Shown here: positions 4,001 through 40,576 of the stretch, piece after piece
How the letters are laid out: every line of letters starts with the position of its first letter
Numbering within the stretch: position 1 is the first letter of the stretch
NCBI GenBank assembly: GCA_012441205.1
Contig: GCA_012441205.1_4705.1
DNA from: a phage
DNA: 64,000 bases
Reading direction: 5' to 3' (one strand)
The notes under the pieces: model-generated
Database searches by the model: none
Told to the model about the DNA's origin: nothing
The model's input: the letters and a program-made list of their open reading frames with translations, nothing else
Translations under genes and position numbers: made by a program

Positions 4001-7000
4001 CGACGGCATTAAGTCTCCCACGGATGTTAAAACGCGGTGCGGTTGAGATCTACAAACAGCTTGACAAAACACCCGACGTTTACGTCAAGGGAGAATCAAC
4101 GCCTCGTCTGTTGTCCATGGTGTTAGCAGCGGGTGGGTATTTCCGTCGCTCGGATGGACAAGTCATCAAAAATCTTGAAGACATCGATGGTGATGTTGTT
4201 GATGCACAAGGTAACGTCGTACTTACGCTTGCCGACATGCAGAAAGGACTTGTCGATAAATACGGTAAAGCGATTCGTCGTTTAAAAGAAAAGCTCATCA
4301 ACTTCGGTGTAAAAGCTTTTACGTTACCGTTAACGTTGCTACGTAAGACAAAGGACATCCTTAAAGCCCTTCCAGGTAAAACCGTTAACGGTCTACGGCG
4401 GATGGGATTAAATTTCCAATCACCCGACGCATTACTGGTGGGAACAACGTCGAGCATGGTAGATCGCCTCGATGCTATTTACCAGCTTCTTGACCAGCGT
4501 ATGCCGGGAGGTGATAAGGATTACCGCGATTGGAATGGCGATGGTGTTCGAGAAGGATCGTTGGAAGACCTGAAACGTAAGCGTGAAGCCAAGGAAAACG
4601 GTAAGGATGACATCGGCAAAGATTCCAATAAAGGAGAAGAAAAGGAGAAGAAACGAGGGTTACTCGGAAGCCTTTTCGATATGCTCGGTGATACCGCAAT
4701 AGGTAAACGTCTCATGGCGAGTCCGCTTGGAAAAATTCTGGGTGGTCTTGGGGCGGTGTTAAGCGGCGGTGCGTCGTTAACTGGGTTGTTGGGCAAAGGT
4801 CTCATTAGAGGAACCGGCGCGCTGGTCAAGGGAGGACTAAGTGCGGCAGGATGGTTAGGACGTGGTGCGTTAATGGCGGGTGGGGCCGCGTTGAACGCCG
4901 TTGGTGGGTTATCGGGATTAGGTGCATTCCTCATCTCACCTGTTGGGCTTGCTATCGCTGGCGGTGCGTTGGCTGCTTATGCTGGATGGAAGATCTATCA
5001 GCATTTCGCCGAGAAGCCTGACCCGATGCAGAAGCTCCGTCTTATTGCATACGGTGCAAAAGGGGATGATAAAGACTTCAATAAGAAGCTGCTTGCGACA
5101 GAAACATACCTCACCGACCATGTGGTCATGACCGGGGATACCATCGGATTCGATCCGAAAGCCGATTCTGAAAAGATTCTCGAAATCTGGGAATTGTCTC
5201 TGGAAGATTCCGACCGAATGAACGAATGGAAACGCTGGTATCTGCATCGTTTTATTCCTGTTTTCGCTCGTGCGTACAAACTCTGGAAAGAGCATATGCC
5301 GGACGAGAAGAAATACATGGAAATGGATAAATATCCGAACGGTGAGAACAAAGTGAAATGGTCGGAAGCGTTTATCTGGCCTTCCGATAGTCCTGATGGT
5401 CCGTATTACGTCGAAGCTAACCCGTTGGGTTCTTCTGGTGCGACGCGTTATATTGCTGGTCAAGACGTCAAAACCTTGATGCTGAAACAGCTCGAAGCCA
5501 TCAAGAAAGAGTACCAGAATCAGATTAAGCAATACACTCATGATGAGGCTATTGCTGATTGGTCACGGATGTCTGACACACAACGTAAATCCGTTGCGCC
5601 TAACGCATTACGTGGTCAGAAAGCGTCATTACGTTTTAACGATAAACGTTACAACAGCGCTGGTGCTAAAGGACGACAGAAACTGGATGCAACCGCGGTT
5701 ATTGAAAGCGTAGACCGTCGTGGTAGAAAATGGGTTGCCGGTGGATACATCGATGAACTCACCAGTCTCCGTGTTCGTGCGTACGGTATTAAGGTTCCGT
5801 TGTTAAGTCAGATAAAAGTGCTGATGGAACTCGAAGACGCTGTAGAACCTGGCGTTGTCGCTGAAGGTAAAGGTGTTAAATACGGTGGCGATCTTGTCGC
5901 GCTCTACAAGAAATTCGCGACGAAGTTCGGAAGAGACGTTAACAGCAAGCATGATCAGGATATCTGGTTTGCTTGGATGAACAACCGTTTCCTGCCCGTC
6001 TTTTTAACCTATTACCAACAAGTTAGCGACATGGGCGGTCAAGGACTTCTGTCCGACGTGGTACAGAACCTGAAAGACAGCCAACGTTGGGAAATCGGTG
6101 AAGAACTTGTCGCAGCGCAATACCGTGATGAGAAAGGTACACTGCAGCCCGTATGGTCGTGGAACAGTTGTGGTTTCTCCGGTACTGAAGCTAACACCAC
6201 CAGCAGTTCAACAAAGAGTCAGCTCGATCTGTTAAAAGAATATGCGGATAAAGAGAAGGTTCGTGAGAAGAACGCGGAAGCATCGCAAGAGGATACCGAT
6301 AAATTATCGAAGATCCAAGAGCTGATGATGAAGCAGGCTGGGTACGAGAAGAAAGACGGTGTCTGGCAGAAGAAATCTCGCATTACCGGCGGGATGAGTA
6401 ACTCCGAAGCGAATTACAACCCCAATGGGAATAAGGTCGGTGCAAGCAGCTTTACTGCTTCAGCTACTTCCAGTGCGGGATTGGGGTCAACCGGCGATCT
6501 TACCGGATTGCCTAACATGGGCTTACAGAAACCTGCAACGGGGCCAGGTCCCGAAGCTGGACGTCGTGCGCTTGTTAAATCCGCTGTGAAACGCGGTATT
6601 ACCGATCCAATGGAAATGGCGATGTTCCTTGCAAACATCGAACATGAATCGGGGAACTACACTCACGTACGTGAGGGGAACTATAAGACACCAGAGCATC
6701 TTAAACAGGTCTTCCCTTACAAATTCCGTGACGTGCAGGATGCAGCGCAGACGATTAGCATGGGGCCGGAAGCGGTGTTCGAACGCGTGTACGGTAATCG
6801 TAAAGACTTAGGGAACACGCAGAAAGGAGACGGGGCGAAGTATTTAGGACGTGGCTTCATTCAGGTTACCGGTAAAGCTAACTACGCTCGTCTGTCCAAG
6901 ACCTTGAATAAAGATCTTGTCAGCGATCCATCATACCTGGAAACGCCGGAAGGTGCGGCGGAAGGTAGTGTCGCGTGGTGGCTCAACCGAGGCAATGTGT

Positions 7001-20170: not shown

Positions 20171-20220
20171 TGTAAACCTCATTAATCATTGTCCGTATGA
20201 TAGCCCAAAGTTGTACGGTA

Positions 20221-20772
20221 TTACCGATTACCGTCAGTTGACGTTGGTTGATTGCGATCGATTTTCATTGACCGTAATTTTCCACCATTAGTTACACACT
20301 GATTGCGCTGTTCGACGGAGGCCAGACTGTTACAGACATAATAAGTATCGATAAAACGCTCAACGCGTTCTTGAAACTTCCTCCCGGCAACTTGCTCTTT
20401 TTCAAAAGTTCGTAATGCACGATCGACCTCACCTTGGAGAATCCGGTTCTGTTCAACCATACTGTCTATTAAACGGCCTCGCACTTCGTTCGATGTGTAG
20501 AGTTGATGAATCAGTTCTCGGTTGGTGTCTCGCGCATAACGCAATGTTGCATTTTCCTGACGTAAACTACTCACGTCAGCCATCAAGGTAATGATTTTTT
20601 CGCCAGCGAATAACGTCACGATACCCAATACGATGAAAAAGCCCGTAATCAAGAATATCGAGGACTGTCGAGCTCCATCTCGACGATAGCGTGTGGGCGG
20701 TCGCTTACTTCGCCGAAACAACTCGCGAAGAAAAGGGAAAAGCCAGGGCAACGCCTTGAGTGTAGTAAACAT
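20221..20772 (-). CDS. membrane-anchored coiled-coil protein (183 aa)
   Basis: N-terminal hydrophobic segment SSIFLITGFFIVLGIVTLFAG followed by a charged, heptad-like region; preferred start ATG 20772 (AAGGA upstream). Confidence 0.5.
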   Translation of the reverse strand: MFTTLKALPWLFPFLRELFRRSKRPPTRYRRDGARQSSIFLITGFFIVLGIVTLFAGEKIITLMADVSSLRQENATLRYARDTNRELIHQLYTSNEVRGRLIDSMVEQNRILQGEVDRALRTFEKEQVAGRKFQERVERFIDTYYVCNSLASVEQRNQCVTNGGKLRSMKIDRNQPTSTDGNR

Positions 20773-20826
20773 GCGTGTGTCCTTGATAGTATGAAATTTC
20801 CAATACAACTTAACCGAGGACGTCGA

Positions 20827-24679: not shown

Positions 24680-25336
24680 TTAGCTTGCAGCTTCTTCATT
24701 TGTATCAGGTTTGCTTCCCCCTAACAAACCGTCAAACAGACCCGTATGTTTCAGGTAGAAGAGAGCGATAGCGCCCATTGCTGCTGCGCTCGTCGCCGTT
24801 AACGCAACCCCGGCACGATACTGCCATTTACGGTCAGGCTTTTGATCAAGAGCCATACGACGCATGTATTCAGCCTCTGCTTCATTCCGATGAATTTCGG
24901 ATTCAGCCAAGCGGGCTAAGGTATCGCGGTCAAGGTTATCATAACGTACGTTCATGGTGGTTTCCTCTTGTTTGGAAGTTGATTGCTTAGTGGATTCTTG
25001 GTCAACAGTCGTTTCAGATGGTTCAAACGGCTGGTTGTTCATTTTCTGATCTTTATTGGTCATGATAGACTCCTTCGATTTTTGAGACGAAATTGATTTA
25101 AACCATCGTGGATGGCGGTATTCAGTTTTACATGTGCAGTTAAGTTTCTCGTGCAGGAAAGCGTAAAAACGTTTTGCGCCTACACGTAAGGCTTTCAGCA
25201 TTACCCATCCACGAGCACTCAAACGGTGTAGCTGTTGCGGTATGTCGAGTTTCCTAGCCAAGCGAAAGTATCTTTCAATCACTTCGATAGGAAACCATTG
25301 TTGTTCCACATCGGTGAGACTGAAAGTCTTATCCAT
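24680..25336 (-). CDS. protein with C-terminal TM helix (218 aa)
   Basis: C-terminal AGVALTATSAAAMGAIALFYL. Confidence 0.5.
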   Translation of the reverse strand: MDKTFSLTDVEQQWFPIEVIERYFRLARKLDIPQQLHRLSARGWVMLKALRVGAKRFYAFLHEKLNCTCKTEYRHPRWFKSISSQKSKESIMTNKDQKMNNQPFEPSETTVDQESTKQSTSKQEETTMNVRYDNLDRDTLARLAESEIHRNEAEAEYMRRMALDQKPDRKWQYRAGVALTATSAAAMGAIALFYLKHTGLFDGLLGGSKPDTNEEAAS

Positions 25337-25365
25337 GATTGAAATCTCGCTGGCTTACTTCACTT

Positions 25366-25388
25366 AAGTAATATAGCCGTGAAAAATG
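25366..25388 (+). promoter_or_regulatory. partial copy of conserved intergenic element (copy C)
   Basis: TAAGTAATATAGCCGTGAAAAATG shares the 17-mer GTAATATAGCCGTGAAA with 37966-37982. Confidence 0.35.
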
Positions 25389-25486
25389 TTGGATTAAGTT
25401 AAATACCGCAACCGCAGCTAATTTTATAGGCTTTTAGCCTAAACCAATCATCTTCGGAATCATCATCTTTGAAACAGGAATCTATC

Positions 25487-26308
25487 ATGGAAAAAGTATT
25501 TGTTTGTAAGTTGTTTACCAACGGCAATAGCCAACCAATGTATCTGACCGATCCTGTTCTAGGTAATCGGAACAGTACCGTATTCAAAGAGGCTTTCGAA
25601 TACGCTAAAAATAAAGCCGTGAGAACACTGACGTCTGATGACTGTATCAACGGTATCACGTGGGCAGAGTTAATCGGTGATGCCGTTCGACACTTCGTTC
25701 GGGATGCGAGAAAACGGGAAATCTGTCTCACGACTATTGTTGTGCGTGAAAACGCAGAAATTTTATCAAACGTTTTGGTTGATTTTAATGACGTTTGTGT
25801 GTTTAATCCAGAGAACACGTTTGAACAATACCTTACTGCCCTGAACAACCAGCTCGGTAAAGATATTCATCCCGAATTCGCCAAGTTAACATATCAGTTA
25901 CTTTTTGACGACGTCGATCCAAATACGAAGATCGATACCAGCTTATCGCCCCTGGTAAAGAAATACGGATCGGTTCTCGCTACGGCAACACCCACCACCG
26001 ATGGTGGTTATGATATCGAATTGGATGATCCATTAAAAGAACAAGAGCCTACTGGGGTTAGGGCGGTACATCACAACCTCGTCGTTAAATCTGATGGATG
26101 CGATGAACATTACGCTATGATAAACGATGAAAACAATTACCGTTTAAGTCAAGCGATTGGTGTTCTACGCTATACCGAACCCACTGTTGTAGACGATTAT
26201 ACATCGACAACAACGCACACCACGTGTTTCATTTTCATCTATCCCAATGAAAGTGTGTACATTACCGACTGCTATGGCAATACCGTAGATAGCTTACGTC
26301 GTTATTGA
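25487..26308 (+). CDS. hypothetical protein (273 aa)
   Basis: Preferred start ATG 25487 with AGGAA upstream (track start 25469). Confidence 0.6.
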   Translation: MEKVFVCKLFTNGNSQPMYLTDPVLGNRNSTVFKEAFEYAKNKAVRTLTSDDCINGITWAELIGDAVRHFVRDARKREICLTTIVVRENAEILSNVLVDFNDVCVFNPENTFEQYLTALNNQLGKDIHPEFAKLTYQLLFDDVDPNTKIDTSLSPLVKKYGSVLATATPTTDGGYDIELDDPLKEQEPTGVRAVHHNLVVKSDGCDEHYAMINDENNYRLSQAIGVLRYTEPTVVDDYTSTTTHTTCFIFIYPNESVYITDCYGNTVDSLRRY

Positions 26309-26315
26309 TTATCGA

Positions 26316-26341
26316 GCCTGTCCTTCGGGGCAGGCTTTTTA
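26316..26341 (+). terminator. intrinsic terminator (UUCG-loop hairpin followed by T5)
   Basis: GCCTGTCC-ttcg-GGGCAGGC followed by TTTTT, directly after stop 26308. Confidence 0.7.
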
Positions 26342-26417
26342 TGCTGTTAAATATCAGGAATAAGAATTAACAAAATAGGAAAATGGTGTGTATATAACAC
26401 AAAGGAGGGAGATGATT

Positions 26418-26534
26418 ATGTTACTCATTCTAATGGAGAGAGCATTGCTGGCGGGTATCTGCGCATTCTCTGTTAAACACGCTGTTGCTATCATGGCTGA
26501 AGAAAGGCGTAATACGCATAATGTATTACGCTGA
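26418..26534 (+). CDS. candidate small hydrophobic peptide (38 aa)
   Basis: AAGGAGGGAG precedes the ATG; product MLLILMERALLAGICAFSVKHAVAIMAEERRNTHNVLR; below the ORF-track size cutoff. Confidence 0.3.
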   Translation: MLLILMERALLAGICAFSVKHAVAIMAEERRNTHNVLR

Positions 26535-26644
26535 AAACACTGTGTGCATTAGTGTATGACGAGAAATCGTCGAGGCCCCCGTCTTCACGAGGGCCAACAC
26601 CTATGCATGATTATTCATCGTCTGTTAAACAAAAGGTTATAAAC

Positions 26645-26953
26645 ATGAGCAATTTGAACGTTGAATTTACTTCAACAACGCCTGTCATGAATGGTGTTGG
26701 CACTGAAACCAAAATCGTATTAGAACCCATTCCAGGGTTACGCGATCTCGGTGATTTTTATCCACTGATGCCGCGTATACGGAAGGCCTTAAACAGTATC
26801 GATCTTGATTCCAATAAAGATTTCCAACACGATACAGAAAATACCGATCATGTATTGCTGCCATCAGGGATCGCAAAATTCACCTACACGCAAACATTGA
26901 AAGCCTCTGATGGTGAAATCCGTCGTTTTATCGTTGAAGTAGAAAGCGCATAA
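26645..26953 (+). CDS. hypothetical protein (start uncertain; ORF track starts at 26552)
   Basis: ORF; several candidate ATG starts, none with a strong RBS. Confidence 0.45.
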   Translation: MSNLNVEFTSTTPVMNGVGTETKIVLEPIPGLRDLGDFYPLMPRIRKALNSIDLDSNKDFQHDTENTDHVLLPSGIAKFTYTQTLKASDGEIRRFIVEVESA

Positions 26954-26955
26954 AA

Positions 26956-26996
26956 ACCATCCTCCCAACCCGTAAGGGAAGGGAGGATGAAATATG
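26956..26996. repeat. GGAGG-stem palindromic hairpin element (family copy)
   Basis: CCATCCTCCC-aaCCCgtaaGGGaa-GGGAGGATG then AAATATG; between convergent genes. Confidence 0.6.
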
Positions 26997-27006
26997 CCGT
27001 TAAACG

Positions 27007-27636
27007 TTATTCAACAAACCCTGCATTCAACAGATTGTCGTAAACACGATTAGCGACATCAACAGGAGAATGTGTGTTACTGGTATCTATACGCAGCGTT
27101 TTCGCGTCGCCGAGATAGTCCATAAAATCCATGTAACGATAACGTCGTTTATTGAATGTCGCTTCATCGATGTTATCAAACATCTGATGTTTAGCGTGAC
27201 GAACACGGAACCGCCTTAAATACGTAGGATAGTCGATATCCAGATAAACATAGTAAGACGGCATGATAATCGACGGTAGGTTCGGCAACAATGCGTCAAA
27301 CAACTTAACGTTGGCATCATTAACCTGATAAACATACGTCGAAGCAATCGAACGATCGCTAAGCACAGTCTTCCCTTCGTTAAGGGCTGGATGAATCACC
27401 TTGTTGAAGAGATGATTACGTTGCGACATCATCGCCAATAGTTCAGTTTCTGGATCGAATCTGTTCGTTGGTGTCTGATCTTCCAGGATAAGTTTACGAA
27501 TGGCTTCTCCGTAGAGCGTACCACCGGGTTCACGTACGACACAGACGTTGTTTAAACGACTGTGTAAAGACGAGATAACCGAACTCTTTCCTGAATAATC
27601 CAGACCTTCAATAACGATATATTTATTACGAGACAT
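27007..27636 (-). CDS. tmk: thymidylate (dTMP) kinase
   Basis: P-loop KYIVIEGLDYSGKSS, REPGGT and the DR motif, matching Tmk (KYIVIEGLEGAGKTT, REPGGT); preferred start ATG 27636. Confidence 0.8.
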   Translation of the reverse strand: MSRNKYIVIEGLDYSGKSSVISSLHSRLNNVCVVREPGGTLYGEAIRKLILEDQTPTNRFDPETELLAMMSQRNHLFNKVIHPALNEGKTVLSDRSIASTYVYQVNDANVKLFDALLPNLPSIIMPSYYVYLDIDYPTYLRRFRVRHAKHQMFDNIDEATFNKRRYRYMDFMDYLGDAKTLRIDTSNTHSPVDVANRVYDNLLNAGFVE

Positions 27637-37834: not shown

Positions 37835-37920
37835 TTAAAAAGTTCCTCTGTTTCACGTTAATTAAACAACGTATTGATTTCTATTTGACAGAATACGAAC
37901 ATCGTACGTATCTATCACTT

Positions 37921-37976
37921 AGGTAACGCTTACGCGTCGCGTTCATGATACCATGCATCATGAAGGTAATATAGCC
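37921..37976 (+). promoter_or_regulatory. conserved intergenic element, copy B
   Basis: AGGTAACGCTTACGCGTCGCGTTCATGATACCATGCATCATGAAGGTAATATAGCC; near-identical to 12203-12254. Confidence 0.4.
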
Positions 37977-38085
37977 GTGAAAGGATTTGTGTTAACGCAA
38001 GGGTTTTGTTTGTTTTTTAAGAAGGGATGGATTTAGAAGAGGTGTTTCAAGGAAGGTAAACGAGAATAGGTATTTTGATTTAAGT

Positions 38086-38210
38086 AAGATGTTATCTGTA
38101 TCCGTTAGAAGTGTATTGTCTAAGTTATCTTGTTTATCTTAGGTTTAATCGTTTTTATCTTGGTATGTTTAAGTTGTTTTTATTTAACTGTTAAAATGCT
38201 TATCTTCAAA
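38086..38210. repeat. AT-rich tract with reiterated TTATCT/TTATC motifs (iteron-like)
   Basis: gTTATCTgta, gTTATCTtg, tTTATCTtag, tTTATCTtgg, cTTATCTtc within about 120 bp. Confidence 0.5.
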
Positions 38211-38220
38211 ACAATGGATA

Positions 38221-38269
38221 ACATGTGTTTACTACGCTCGTTGAGTTATAACTCAACGGTAACACATGT
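38221..38269. repeat. nested palindrome (cruciform-capable)
   Basis: Outer arms ACATGTGTT / AACACATGT enclosing inner arms CGTTGAGTT / AACTCAACG. Confidence 0.6.
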
Positions 38270-38428
38270 CATCTGTGCATTACACTACGTTACATGCTAG
38301 TTAAATCGGATAACTCAAAAAAACATTTGTGATACTCTTCTTCACGTTGTTCATCAGAGTATCTCGTCTATACTCATTGCATTCGTATACGACATAACCG
38401 TTACACGCTAACGCTACGCTTATAGCTT

Positions 38429-38495
38429 GATAACTCTAAGGATAAAAACATAAACTCGCTTCGCTCGTTTAGTTTTTCTTTTTCTTAGAGTTATC
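38429..38495. repeat. 12-bp perfect inverted repeat GATAACTCTAAG / CTTAGAGTTATC separated by 43 bp
   Basis: Read directly at 38429-38440 and 38484-38495; GATAACTC also recurs at 38308. Confidence 0.6.
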
Positions 38496-38661
38496 CTGTT
38501 GCTCGTCTCTAAAGGACTTCGCTCCTCCCCCGTCCCCCGAAGGGGCCGAGGTCGTGGAAATTTTACTTTCCAAATACATTTACAACATCTGTAAACTTTT
38601 ACTCCAGGTACTTAATCTTATCATTAGAAATTATAAAAGAGAAAATAAACACAAACATAAA

Positions 38662-38698
38662 CCTTCCCCCGACCCGTAAGGGAAGGAGGAAGGGAGAG
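38662..38698. repeat. hairpin related to the junction family (conserved apex CCCGTAAGGGAA)
   Basis: CCTTCC-cccgaCCCgtaag-GGAAGG then GAGGAAGGGAGAG; directly 3' of minus gene stop 38705. Confidence 0.45.
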
Positions 38699-38704
38699 AT
38701 TAAA

Positions 38705-39737: not shown

Positions 39738-40283
39738 ATGTCTACTTTAGACTTTAACAAAGCAGCGAAATCCCTTCTGCTTGATCTTATTAACACCAAA
39801 GCGACCCGCACATTGGCTGAAGAAGAACTGCAGTTCGGTACTCCGCAGGAATCTTCCGAACATGAAAAGAACACCGTTATTCAGCTGGACGCGGCGGCTG
39901 AAGCAGCTAACCTGCAGGGTACTCAGCAGTTCTACTACGATCGTCTGGCTCTGTCTGACGTTTTCGCTGATGTAACTGGTGATGTTACTTTCGAACTGCC
40001 GCACGGTACTGACAGCATTCAGGCTTCTGAGCTGGTAAGCAAGCTGGTCACCAAATTCGGTCTGGCTTCCCTGAATGGTGAAATCAGAGAAGAAACCTTC
40101 CAGCTGTCTGCCGGTACTGTTGATGAGGTAATTCTGAATGCGATCGAGGGTGGCCTGGTATACACTGGTACTCTGCGAGTTGCCCTGACCTACGCACTGG
40201 CACCAAAAGACGAACTGGCAACCGTTCTGGCGAATAACGTAGCTGAAGGTTTCGAGAAACCGACCGTTAGCGTTGTTGGCTAA
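39738..40283 (+). CDS. paralogous-family protein (181 aa), strongly codon-optimised, probably highly expressed
   Basis: ATG 39738 with GAGGA upstream; near-exclusive use of CTG, GGT, CGT, CCG, GAA, GCT, ACT, TCT codons; architecture parallels the neighbouring 297-aa protein. Confidence 0.7.
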   Translation: MSTLDFNKAAKSLLLDLINTKATRTLAEEELQFGTPQESSEHEKNTVIQLDAAAEAANLQGTQQFYYDRLALSDVFADVTGDVTFELPHGTDSIQASELVSKLVTKFGLASLNGEIREETFQLSAGTVDEVILNAIEGGLVYTGTLRVALTYALAPKDELATVLANNVAEGFEKPTVSVVG

Positions 40284-40478
40284 TAAGCACATAGAGCAAT
40301 AGTATGGGTTTTGTACAGCTCGGCTATTGATCTTCTACAATTTGGTTGTAACAATCTGCGTGGTTGCACGCTTATCTTTCTCATTGAACGCTTCGTATGA
40401 AGCGTGGTGTTGAAAGGGTTGTGGATCTCCTCAAGCGGCCAGGGACCCAGACCAACCTGAATAAACACAAACACATGT

Positions 40479-40512
40479 TAAGCCCCTCCTCATCCGTTAT
40501 TGGGTGGGGGGG
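40479..40512. repeat. degenerate hairpin related to the junction family
   Basis: CCCCTCC-tcatccgttattgggt-GGGGGGG, between convergent genes ending at 40283 and 40577. Confidence 0.3.
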
Positions 40513-40576
40513 GTCTTATACGTCTTTATGCGTTCCGTTCGTTCTGGAGCGTTTTAGGACGGTTTATGATGGTGTT

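Follow-up and report, generated by a model that had tools for sequence, protein, structure and literature searches.

A short open reading frame lying directly downstream of a transcription terminator, and announced by a strong ribosome-binding site, raises the question of whether a phage encodes there a small membrane peptide, as a preliminary description of the DNA had proposed, and of what it is in this locus that has been conserved. The frame is found in a stretch of 64,000 nucleotides of phage DNA (the window, whose positions are used throughout). As shown below, the best-supported and more interesting feature of the locus is not the ORF but a folded element of 104 nt (26503-26606) that begins within it.

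The region from 25400 to 27050 is 97% identical to the genome of Escherichia phage vB_EcoM_Goslar (MK327938, genus Goslarvirus), a nucleus-forming jumbo phage of E. coli and the sole phage record matching this region, and by this degree of identity the source phage of the window is a Goslarvirus. In the GenBank record of Goslar, gp005 (plus strand) is followed by an annotated terminator, Goslar_00006, Goslar_00007 and, on the opposite strand, the thymidylate kinase gene (tmk), and this gene order is the same in the window. The two DNAs show no differences from 26392 to 26614, the whole ORF included, the flanks being about 3% divergent. Goslar_00006 is a CDS of 117 nt whose product, a hypothetical protein (QBO63799.1), is identical to the peptide of the window at 38 of 38 residues and, judged by sequence and gene order, the small ORF is the orthologue of Goslar gp006. 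The ORF had been called unannotated, a statement that has to be withdrawn: it is not new, as it entered GenBank together with the Goslar genome, and gene callers have also predicted it on many metagenome contigs. In the Goslar literature that was searched, gp6 is not mentioned. The relevant features around the ORF are the following:

26314-26337, plus strand: intrinsic terminator of gp005, GAGCCTGTCC-TTCG-GGGCAGGCTT followed by TTTAT
26402-26408, plus strand: Shine-Dalgarno sequence AAGGAGG
26418-26534, plus strand: small ORF, 38 aa (MLLILMERALLAGICAFSVKHAVAIMAEERRNTHNVLR), equivalent to Goslar_00006
26645-26953, plus strand: gp007, 102 aa, homologue of Goslar gp7 (Goslar_00007)

The coordinates initially assigned to the ORF (26412-26534) start at an in-frame ATG from which the frame, open to the TGA at 26532-26534, would yield 40 residues (MIMLLIL...); the 38-residue peptide described with them does exist, and it starts at 26418. 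The sequence AAGGAGGGAG (26402-26411) is followed by ATG (26412), ATT and ATG (26418), and the Shine-Dalgarno spacing is better for the ATG at 26418 (9 nt) than for that at 26412 (3 nt). Among relatives, the codon between the two ATGs varies freely (Ile, Thr or Asn), one genome has GTG in place of ATG at 26418, and the GGAG/GAGG core of the ribosome-binding site is kept in all 24 copies. The strong ribosome-binding site reported at the outset is indeed present and, while AGGAGG occurs 21 times in the window, at only two of these sites does an ATG located 4-10 nt further on open at least 38 codons, namely the small ORF and a 355-aa gene. Another AGGAGG with a start codon is found on the minus strand at 40474-40476, in a 702-nt gap (39875-40576) that is one of the few large geneless gaps of the window. 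The short ORF that follows has 31 codons from an ATG or 64 codons from a GTG, and the site may represent another small gene or part of a terminator hairpin. The stretches 20183-20790 and 37835-38704 are also unusually long without an ORF of at least 70 codons, in a genome that is otherwise tightly packed.

The terminator of gp005 is strong, with a 10-bp stem (six GC), a TTCG loop and a T-run, and is annotated in Goslar too. That a terminator lies upstream of the ORF was correctly described; that it is the only classical one was not, comparable structures being present at 24673-24646 and 38686-38662 (both on the minus strand). Together with its flanks (26310-26347; TATCGAG...TTTTATGC) it has an almost exact duplicate at Goslar 180577-180613 (minus strand), which is the annotated terminator after Goslar_00200, distant in the genome. 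A scan for sigma-70 promoters found none 5' of the small ORF; phages of the kind of Goslar transcribe with their own RNA polymerases, which limits the relevance of such a scan. The three intergenic sites of the window that carry the early-promoter-like motif (TATATTAC and flanking bases) do not include the region upstream of the small ORF. The motif TTCACGGCTATATTAC(C)TTCATGATG, common to positions 37973, 25375 and 12251 (minus strand), is intergenic and upstream of minus-strand genes in each case; its likeness to the AT-rich early promoters known from phiKZ-like phages suggests that it is the early promoter of this phage, used by the virion RNA polymerase.

On the other side of the ORF lies gp007, whose Goslar counterpart gp7 has been reported as one of the unmodelled virion proteins with a copy number above 200 per particle (bioRxiv 10.64898/2026.04.21.720040). 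The proportion of variable columns in gp007 is 0.069 at codon positions 1 and 2 versus 0.333 at position 3. Homologues of gp007 outside the genus Goslarvirus were not found, and gp005 gave one match in an Erwinia phage (27% identical), too distant for synteny; neither gene led to usable, more distant syntenic relatives. Within the genus, a metagenomic genome (L004, ERZ28649724 scaffold_1; positions 4775-4850 compared with 25480-26262 of the window) carries two deletions that leave gp005 as remnants, and it keeps the terminator, the small ORF, the folded element and gp007 at 98-99% identity. This indicated that gp005 is dispensable in nature, and that the putative small ORF-gp007 unit is independent of it. 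Concerning the start of gp007, a one-base length difference in an A-run at about 26631 (within 26603-26644) switches the gene calls between 102 and 116 aa. In many relatives the 14 additional residues lie in another frame or contain a stop, which places the real start at 26645. The region around this start (26623-26652, TGTTAAACAAAAGGTTATAAACATGAGCAA) resembles that of Goslar_00077 (Goslar 88044-88073, minus strand) in 26 of 30 bases (E 4.6e-4), a likeness that may reflect a common control of translation or N-termini that are related. A direct repeat of 11 nt, TCTGTTAAACA, is present inside the small ORF (26469-26479) and just upstream of the gp007 ribosome-binding site (26621-26631), and does not exceed chance expectation (E about 4). 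That readthrough or a frameshift might fuse the small ORF to gp007 was discarded, given that an in-frame TAG lies five codons past the TGA and that the gp007 frame opens only at 26552.

The distribution of the peptide proved to be narrow. Among 5.8 billion protein clusters, nine variants were found, all of 38 aa, 84-97% identical to the 40-aa query and placed in one shared genomic context, and a full HMMER pass over 1.84 billion representatives retrieved only Goslarvirus copies; neither collection yielded a homologue outside the genus, a match to a repetitive 453-aa protein being spurious. The peptide had no match in Pfam, PHROGs, NCBIfam or PADLOC, a distant blastn of the locus against phages gave Goslar alone, and 5,426 complete E. 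coli genomes gave none. Loci were sampled through contigs encoding the variants and also through the neighbouring gp007 (in viral and metagenome collections and in a gene index), making up 24 non-redundant copies, all from Goslarvirus and with uniform gene order. The copies found through gp007 are unselected for an intact ORF, because they were reached by way of the neighbouring gene, and with these included the ORF is intact in 24 of 24. The conservation of the ORF and of its ribosome-binding site, which had been suggested as a check, was therefore observed, but integrity alone is uninformative at such divergence: given the observed changes, the chance of encountering no stop codon is 0.84, and an antisense ORF of 46 codons is likewise intact in all relatives. 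For both reasons the intactness of the ORF carries little weight, and the antisense frame shows, in addition, that a length of 38 codons is not in itself beyond chance. This antisense ORF was rejected as a gene, as it has no ribosome-binding site and no sign of selection, and so was a 28-aa ORF at 26556-26642, whose frame is broken by an indel or a stop in relatives.

The substitution pattern speaks more directly about the protein. In the test employed, the position of each change was drawn at random from the bases of the same kind in the ORF. Codons 2-38 contain 33 single-base variants, 16 synonymous and 17 non-synonymous, the synonymous ones exceeding a null mean of 10.9 (P 0.042); for variants present in at least two genomes, 9 of 16 are synonymous (null mean 4.76, P 0.022). 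In codons 2-23, a split picked post hoc, all eight shared variants are synonymous (null mean 2.93, P 0.0002), and in codons 24-38 there is no coding signal (all variants, 3 of 10 synonymous; null mean 3.05, P 0.64). Most of this signal comes from the genomes that diverge furthest. Compared with the window, the synonymous and non-synonymous differences number 7 and 4 in L003, 7 and 3 in L023, and 6 and 3 in L019, and the signal vanishes once L003 and L023 are removed, the variability of the small ORF being then 0.24 at third positions versus 0.19 at positions 1 and 2, and the corresponding values for gp007 being 0.33 and 0.07. Omega is about 0.5, and several radical replacements (L3P, C15R, F17V, R30G and R31C) are found in single genomes. 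Towards its 5' end the ORF has no more structure than shuffled sequences do (z +1.4), which fits a start site open to ribosomes. Taken as a whole, the substitutions provide modest evidence for selection on the protein, and we would put somewhat above even the prospect that the ORF is translated into a peptide whose hydrophobic N-terminal part matters.

What kind of peptide would this be? Its hydrophobic N-terminus had been rightly pointed out: the best 19-residue Kyte-Doolittle window corresponds to residues 1-19, with a mean of 1.97, and the Wimley-White octanol energy of these residues is -3.5 kcal/mol. The hydrophobic run is interrupted by Glu7-Arg8, inside that segment, and by Lys20-His21, and membrane insertion is for this reason only marginally predicted (summed Hessa-scale insertion energy, +2.3 kcal/mol). 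The C-terminus, reported as basic, is so only weakly, since the tail EERRNTHNVLR has a net charge of +1 and the whole peptide one of +2, so the claim was overstated. AlphaFold2, provided with a ten-sequence alignment, predicted one continuous helix spanning residues 2-39, with a mean pLDDT of 83.9 and values above 90 in the first 20 residues. The proposed small membrane peptide is thus best described as a probable hydrophobic, helical peptide, whose insertion into a membrane is only marginally predicted. Tryptic digestion of the product would release ALLAGICAFSVK and HAVAIMAEER. A lipoprotein or o-spanin was discarded, as LAGIC is no lipobox and its Cys is changed to Arg in one genome, and so was a lysis accessory protein (holin, antiholin or o-spanin), given that the neighbours gp005, gp007 (a virion protein gene) and tmk do not make up a lysis cassette; the putative hydrolase genes Goslar_00024, 00098 and 00232 sit away from the small ORF.

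The reading of the locus as a small ORF overlooked a stronger feature, a conserved RNA structure that takes in the last nine codons and 72 nt more. This element is made of a hairpin (H1) covering those codons, a variable linker of 13 nt, and a three-way junction:

26506-26532, plus strand: hairpin H1, 11 bp on the plus strand and 9 bp on the minus strand, spanning codons 30-38 plus the initial base of the TGA
26533-26545, no strand assigned: unpaired linker, including hypervariable positions 26540 and 26544
26546-26606, no strand assigned: ultraconserved three-way-junction domain (outer stem, H2 and H3), ending in TATGC (26602-26606)
26558-26571: hairpin H2, GACGA-GAAA-TCGTC, with a GNRA (GAAA) loop on the plus strand
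26574-26595: hairpin H3, GC-rich

Its conservation is striking at the nucleotide level. Across 18 genomes, a single column of 62 is variable in 26545-26606, and six of 99 in 26508-26606, compared with a rate of 0.33 at gp007 third codon positions (binomial P about 4e-10 and about 7e-11, respectively). In the linker, positions 26540 and 26544 present all four bases among relatives, the surrounding 100 nt being almost invariant, and directly past the element, from 26607 to 26644, comes the most variable stretch (20 of 38 columns). In a 5.8-kb alignment of 14 genomes, the element is one of three stretches of at least 60 nt with at most one variable column. The fold is also considerably more stable than that of dinucleotide shuffles: for 26503-26606 the values are -38.7 kcal/mol (z -5.05) on the plus strand and -43.9 kcal/mol (z -5.90 to -6.4) on the minus strand, and the z-scores of the separate parts are -4.7 and -4.4 for H1 and -4.5 and -5.5 for the three-way junction (plus and minus strand, respectively).

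The position of the few changes is instructive. Variable columns make up 8 of the 40 unpaired positions of the element and 2 of the 64 paired ones (Fisher P=0.012), and both changes at paired positions, which fall in H1, preserve plus-strand pairing (G-U to A-U and C-G to U-G); a C-A mismatch in H3 becomes U-A in one genome. True covariation is absent from the element, since no pair varies on both sides. That variation avoids paired positions, and that the changes keep the pairing, points to a structural constraint acting on RNA. A scan of 25300-27300 against Rfam, with E-values up to 10, gave no relevant match, and neither BLAST nor a covariance model detected the element a second time, whether in the window, the complete Goslar genome or, Goslarviruses aside, IMG/VR; nothing similar to it was found in E. 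coli genomes. A second BLAST place in Goslar turned out to be merely the duplicated terminator described above. The upstream region of the ORF has likewise no repeated copy in the window or in the Goslar genome.

Which strand carries the functional RNA was considered next to the pairing data. In favor of the plus strand are the two extra G-U pairs that H1 gains on it, the GNRA loop of H2, the orientation of the genes on both sides, by which this strand is expressed, and the 26508 C>T change found in two genomes, which produces a U-G pair on the plus strand and an A-C mismatch on the minus strand. In favor of the minus strand are the two G-U pairs of the junction that become C-A mismatches on the plus strand, the greater overall stability given above, and the fact that minus-strand H1 is followed by CUUUCUU, a terminator-like site that was picked up by a terminator scan. 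On the basis of these sequence features, we lean towards an element acting on the plus strand. A further helix has been predicted, by both single-sequence and alignment folding, at a longer range:

26605-26623, plus strand: 3' strand of the long-range helix, whose partner is 26403-26421 (containing the two ATGs of the small ORF and its Shine-Dalgarno sequence)

In 15 sequences, 97.8% of the cells of this helix are paired, 10 of its 15 pairs are variable and two of them show compensatory changes, values reached by 2 of 500 shuffles, for a helix that is rich in A-U and G-U pairs and that was derived from the same sequences used to test its pairing. The predicted helix is thus suggestive only; if real, it would link the gp007 leader with translation of the small ORF.

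All these observations can be integrated into a model that we hold with slightly better than even confidence, in which a translated 38-aa peptide, helical and moderately hydrophobic, is the first cistron of a small ORF-gp007 unit, and the ORF has at its 3' end a folded RNA acting in cis. According to this model, the small ORF, which is the orthologue of Goslar gene 6 and is confined to the genus Goslarvirus, is most likely translated from the ATG at 26418 thanks to its strong ribosome-binding site, giving a 38-residue peptide that would form a single alpha-helix. The selected part of this peptide would be its hydrophobic N-terminal 19-23 residues, and the peptide may associate with the inner membrane or with a hydrophobic partner, leaving the charged tail in the cytoplasm. 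The short plus-strand unit would consist of the small ORF, a structured spacer of 110 nt and gp007, and would be bounded by the gp005 terminator and by the hairpin after gp007. Within it, the last nine codons and the next 72 nt constitute the single-copy, nearly invariant folded element, which might work in cis on the plus-strand transcript, in its processing or stability, or in controlling the translation of the small ORF or of gp007. What the sequences demonstrate in this scheme is the ORF with its ribosome-binding site, the pattern of substitutions, the conservation and how stable the fold is; translation, membrane association, and the acting strand and role of the element are what we infer.

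A first alternative is that only the RNA matters. The region 26400-26644 would then be a long structured leader of gp007, or give rise to a leader-derived small RNA, and the peptide would have no role: the ORF would be incidental, or else a leader ORF whose translation melts H1 and remodels the folding downstream. This possibility, which we consider unlikely though deserving of serious attention, agrees with the strongest constraint of the locus being at the nucleotide level and ignoring codon structure, as seen in 26508-26606; with the location of H1 under the last nine codons, so that a terminating ribosome must unwind it; with some covariation support for the helix joining the ORF start region and 26605-26623; and with the abundance of gp7 in virions. 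Small RNAs derived from 5' untranslated regions have been reported upstream of structural genes in 201phi2-1 and phiKZ (PMC11512511). However, the synonymous nature of all eight shared changes in codons 2-23 is unexpected under a pure RNA constraint, the region of these codons is not unusually structured, the near-perfect ribosome-binding site has been conserved, and the part of the leader nearest to gp007 is precisely the most variable.

A second alternative, in our view quite improbable, is that the ORF arose by chance in an intergenic regulatory region, whose conservation would reflect signals at the DNA level, such as protein-binding sites or a promoter serving gp007. Conservation stops exactly at TATGC (26602-26606), with variable sequence beyond it, and TATG fits the late-promoter motif of phiKZ (T-3 A T G+1; PMC7598289); gp7 being a virion protein and the integrity of the ORF being uninformative are also compatible with this notion. 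However, TATG is not enriched upstream of genes in the window (intergenic sequence, 2.9 per kb; coding sequence, 2.2 per kb) and is missing ahead of many genes, so its presence at 26602 was given little weight as a late promoter. Moreover, the avoidance of paired positions by variation, together with the preservation of pairing, argues for RNA rather than DNA, and a chance ORF would not account for the synonymous bias.

The weakest of the alternatives, a pair resembling a type I toxin-antitoxin system, in which the peptide would be a membrane toxin and the element a minus-strand antisense RNA of about 105 nt, starting near 26606, ending at H1 plus CUUUCUU and overlapping the 3' end of the ORF, is very improbable, because no toxin family is matched in Pfam, NCBIfam or PADLOC even at permissive E-values, charged residues break the hydrophobic segment, the would-be antisense promoter region (26607-26644) is the least conserved and has no early-promoter motif, the 26508 C>T change breaks the minus-strand stem while giving a plus-strand pair, and the U-tail is weak. 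It draws on the resemblance of the minus-strand element to a small RNA (a 5' three-way junction, a single-stranded linker, a 9-bp hairpin and a U-rich tail), on the more stable minus-strand fold and on the two G-U pairs that exist on that strand only. In addition, hok mRNA has a fold-back structure, which the predicted 5'-3' pairing that would hide the ribosome-binding site recalls. To our knowledge, no type I toxin-antitoxin module has been described in a strictly lytic nucleus-forming phage, and the complete version of this idea, a lytic jumbo phage combining such an antisense RNA (from 26606 to about 26500, minus strand) with a fold-back that hides the ribosome-binding site, seems even more remote.

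With the model of a translated peptide followed by a cis-acting RNA in mind, the small ORF, as first presented, is a fairly ordinary find: an annotated, genus-restricted gene of a familiar kind with modest selection on its protein. What merits follow-up is the single-copy, nearly invariant 104-nt folded element placed over the end of the ORF and ahead of the gene for an abundant virion protein. In nucleus-forming jumbo phages, small proteins and regulatory RNAs have hardly been explored. The mRNA of these phages has to leave a protein-walled nucleus, and the early phase of their infection is run from a membrane vesicle; a conserved small hydrophobic peptide could belong to this membrane biology. 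A nearly invariant folded RNA beside the gene of a protein with more than 200 copies per virion is, in turn, a testable candidate for post-transcriptional control, and Goslar is a model phage for which dCas13d knock-down and RNA-seq, including a published time course (bioRxiv 10.1101/2023.09.20.558163), already exist.

The locus can finally be compared with known systems. Type I toxins are represented by hok/Sok, tisB/IstR-1 and ldr/Rdl, and by the 3'-overlapping pairs txpA/RatA and bsrG/SR4. Like them, the locus has a strong ribosome-binding site ahead of an ORF for a peptide shorter than 60 aa, in which a hydrophobic helix is combined with a charged tail; a conserved, structured RNA lies over the ORF's 3' end, and the start would be hidden by a predicted long-range helix. 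It differs from them in the lack of any sequence or profile match, in the Glu-Arg and Lys-His pairs that break the hydrophobic run, in being harbored by a lytic phage, and in that the antisense transcript is here hypothetical, one natural variant speaking against H1 as an antisense hairpin. The resemblance is therefore one of architecture only. In phage lambda, the OOP antisense RNA overlaps the 3' end of cII. If the element acted from the minus strand, it would be similar in being a short antisense RNA with a terminator hairpin lying over the 3' end of a small phage gene; however, structure and sequence are unrelated, no Rfam family is matched, and both promoter and transcript are hypothetical here.

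Two further comparisons are with leader ORFs, which are short, lie on the transcript of the gene they regulate and have alternative RNA structures over their ends, and for which the locus offers a predicted hairpin over the last nine codons, a predicted structured spacer of 110 nt and a predicted long-range helix, and with the small RNAs of chimalliviruses. In this group, sRNA005 of 201phi2-1 and the small RNA upstream of gp182 in phiKZ derive from 5' untranslated regions and precede structural genes (PMC11512511). The likeness is positional and structural: a gene for a virion protein is immediately preceded by a conserved RNA that folds with junctions. As to differences, the gene downstream is here gp7 and not that of the tail protein, and the element overlaps a small ORF. 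The small RNAs of 201phi2-1 and phiKZ thus provide a precedent for a folded regulatory RNA ahead of a virion gene.
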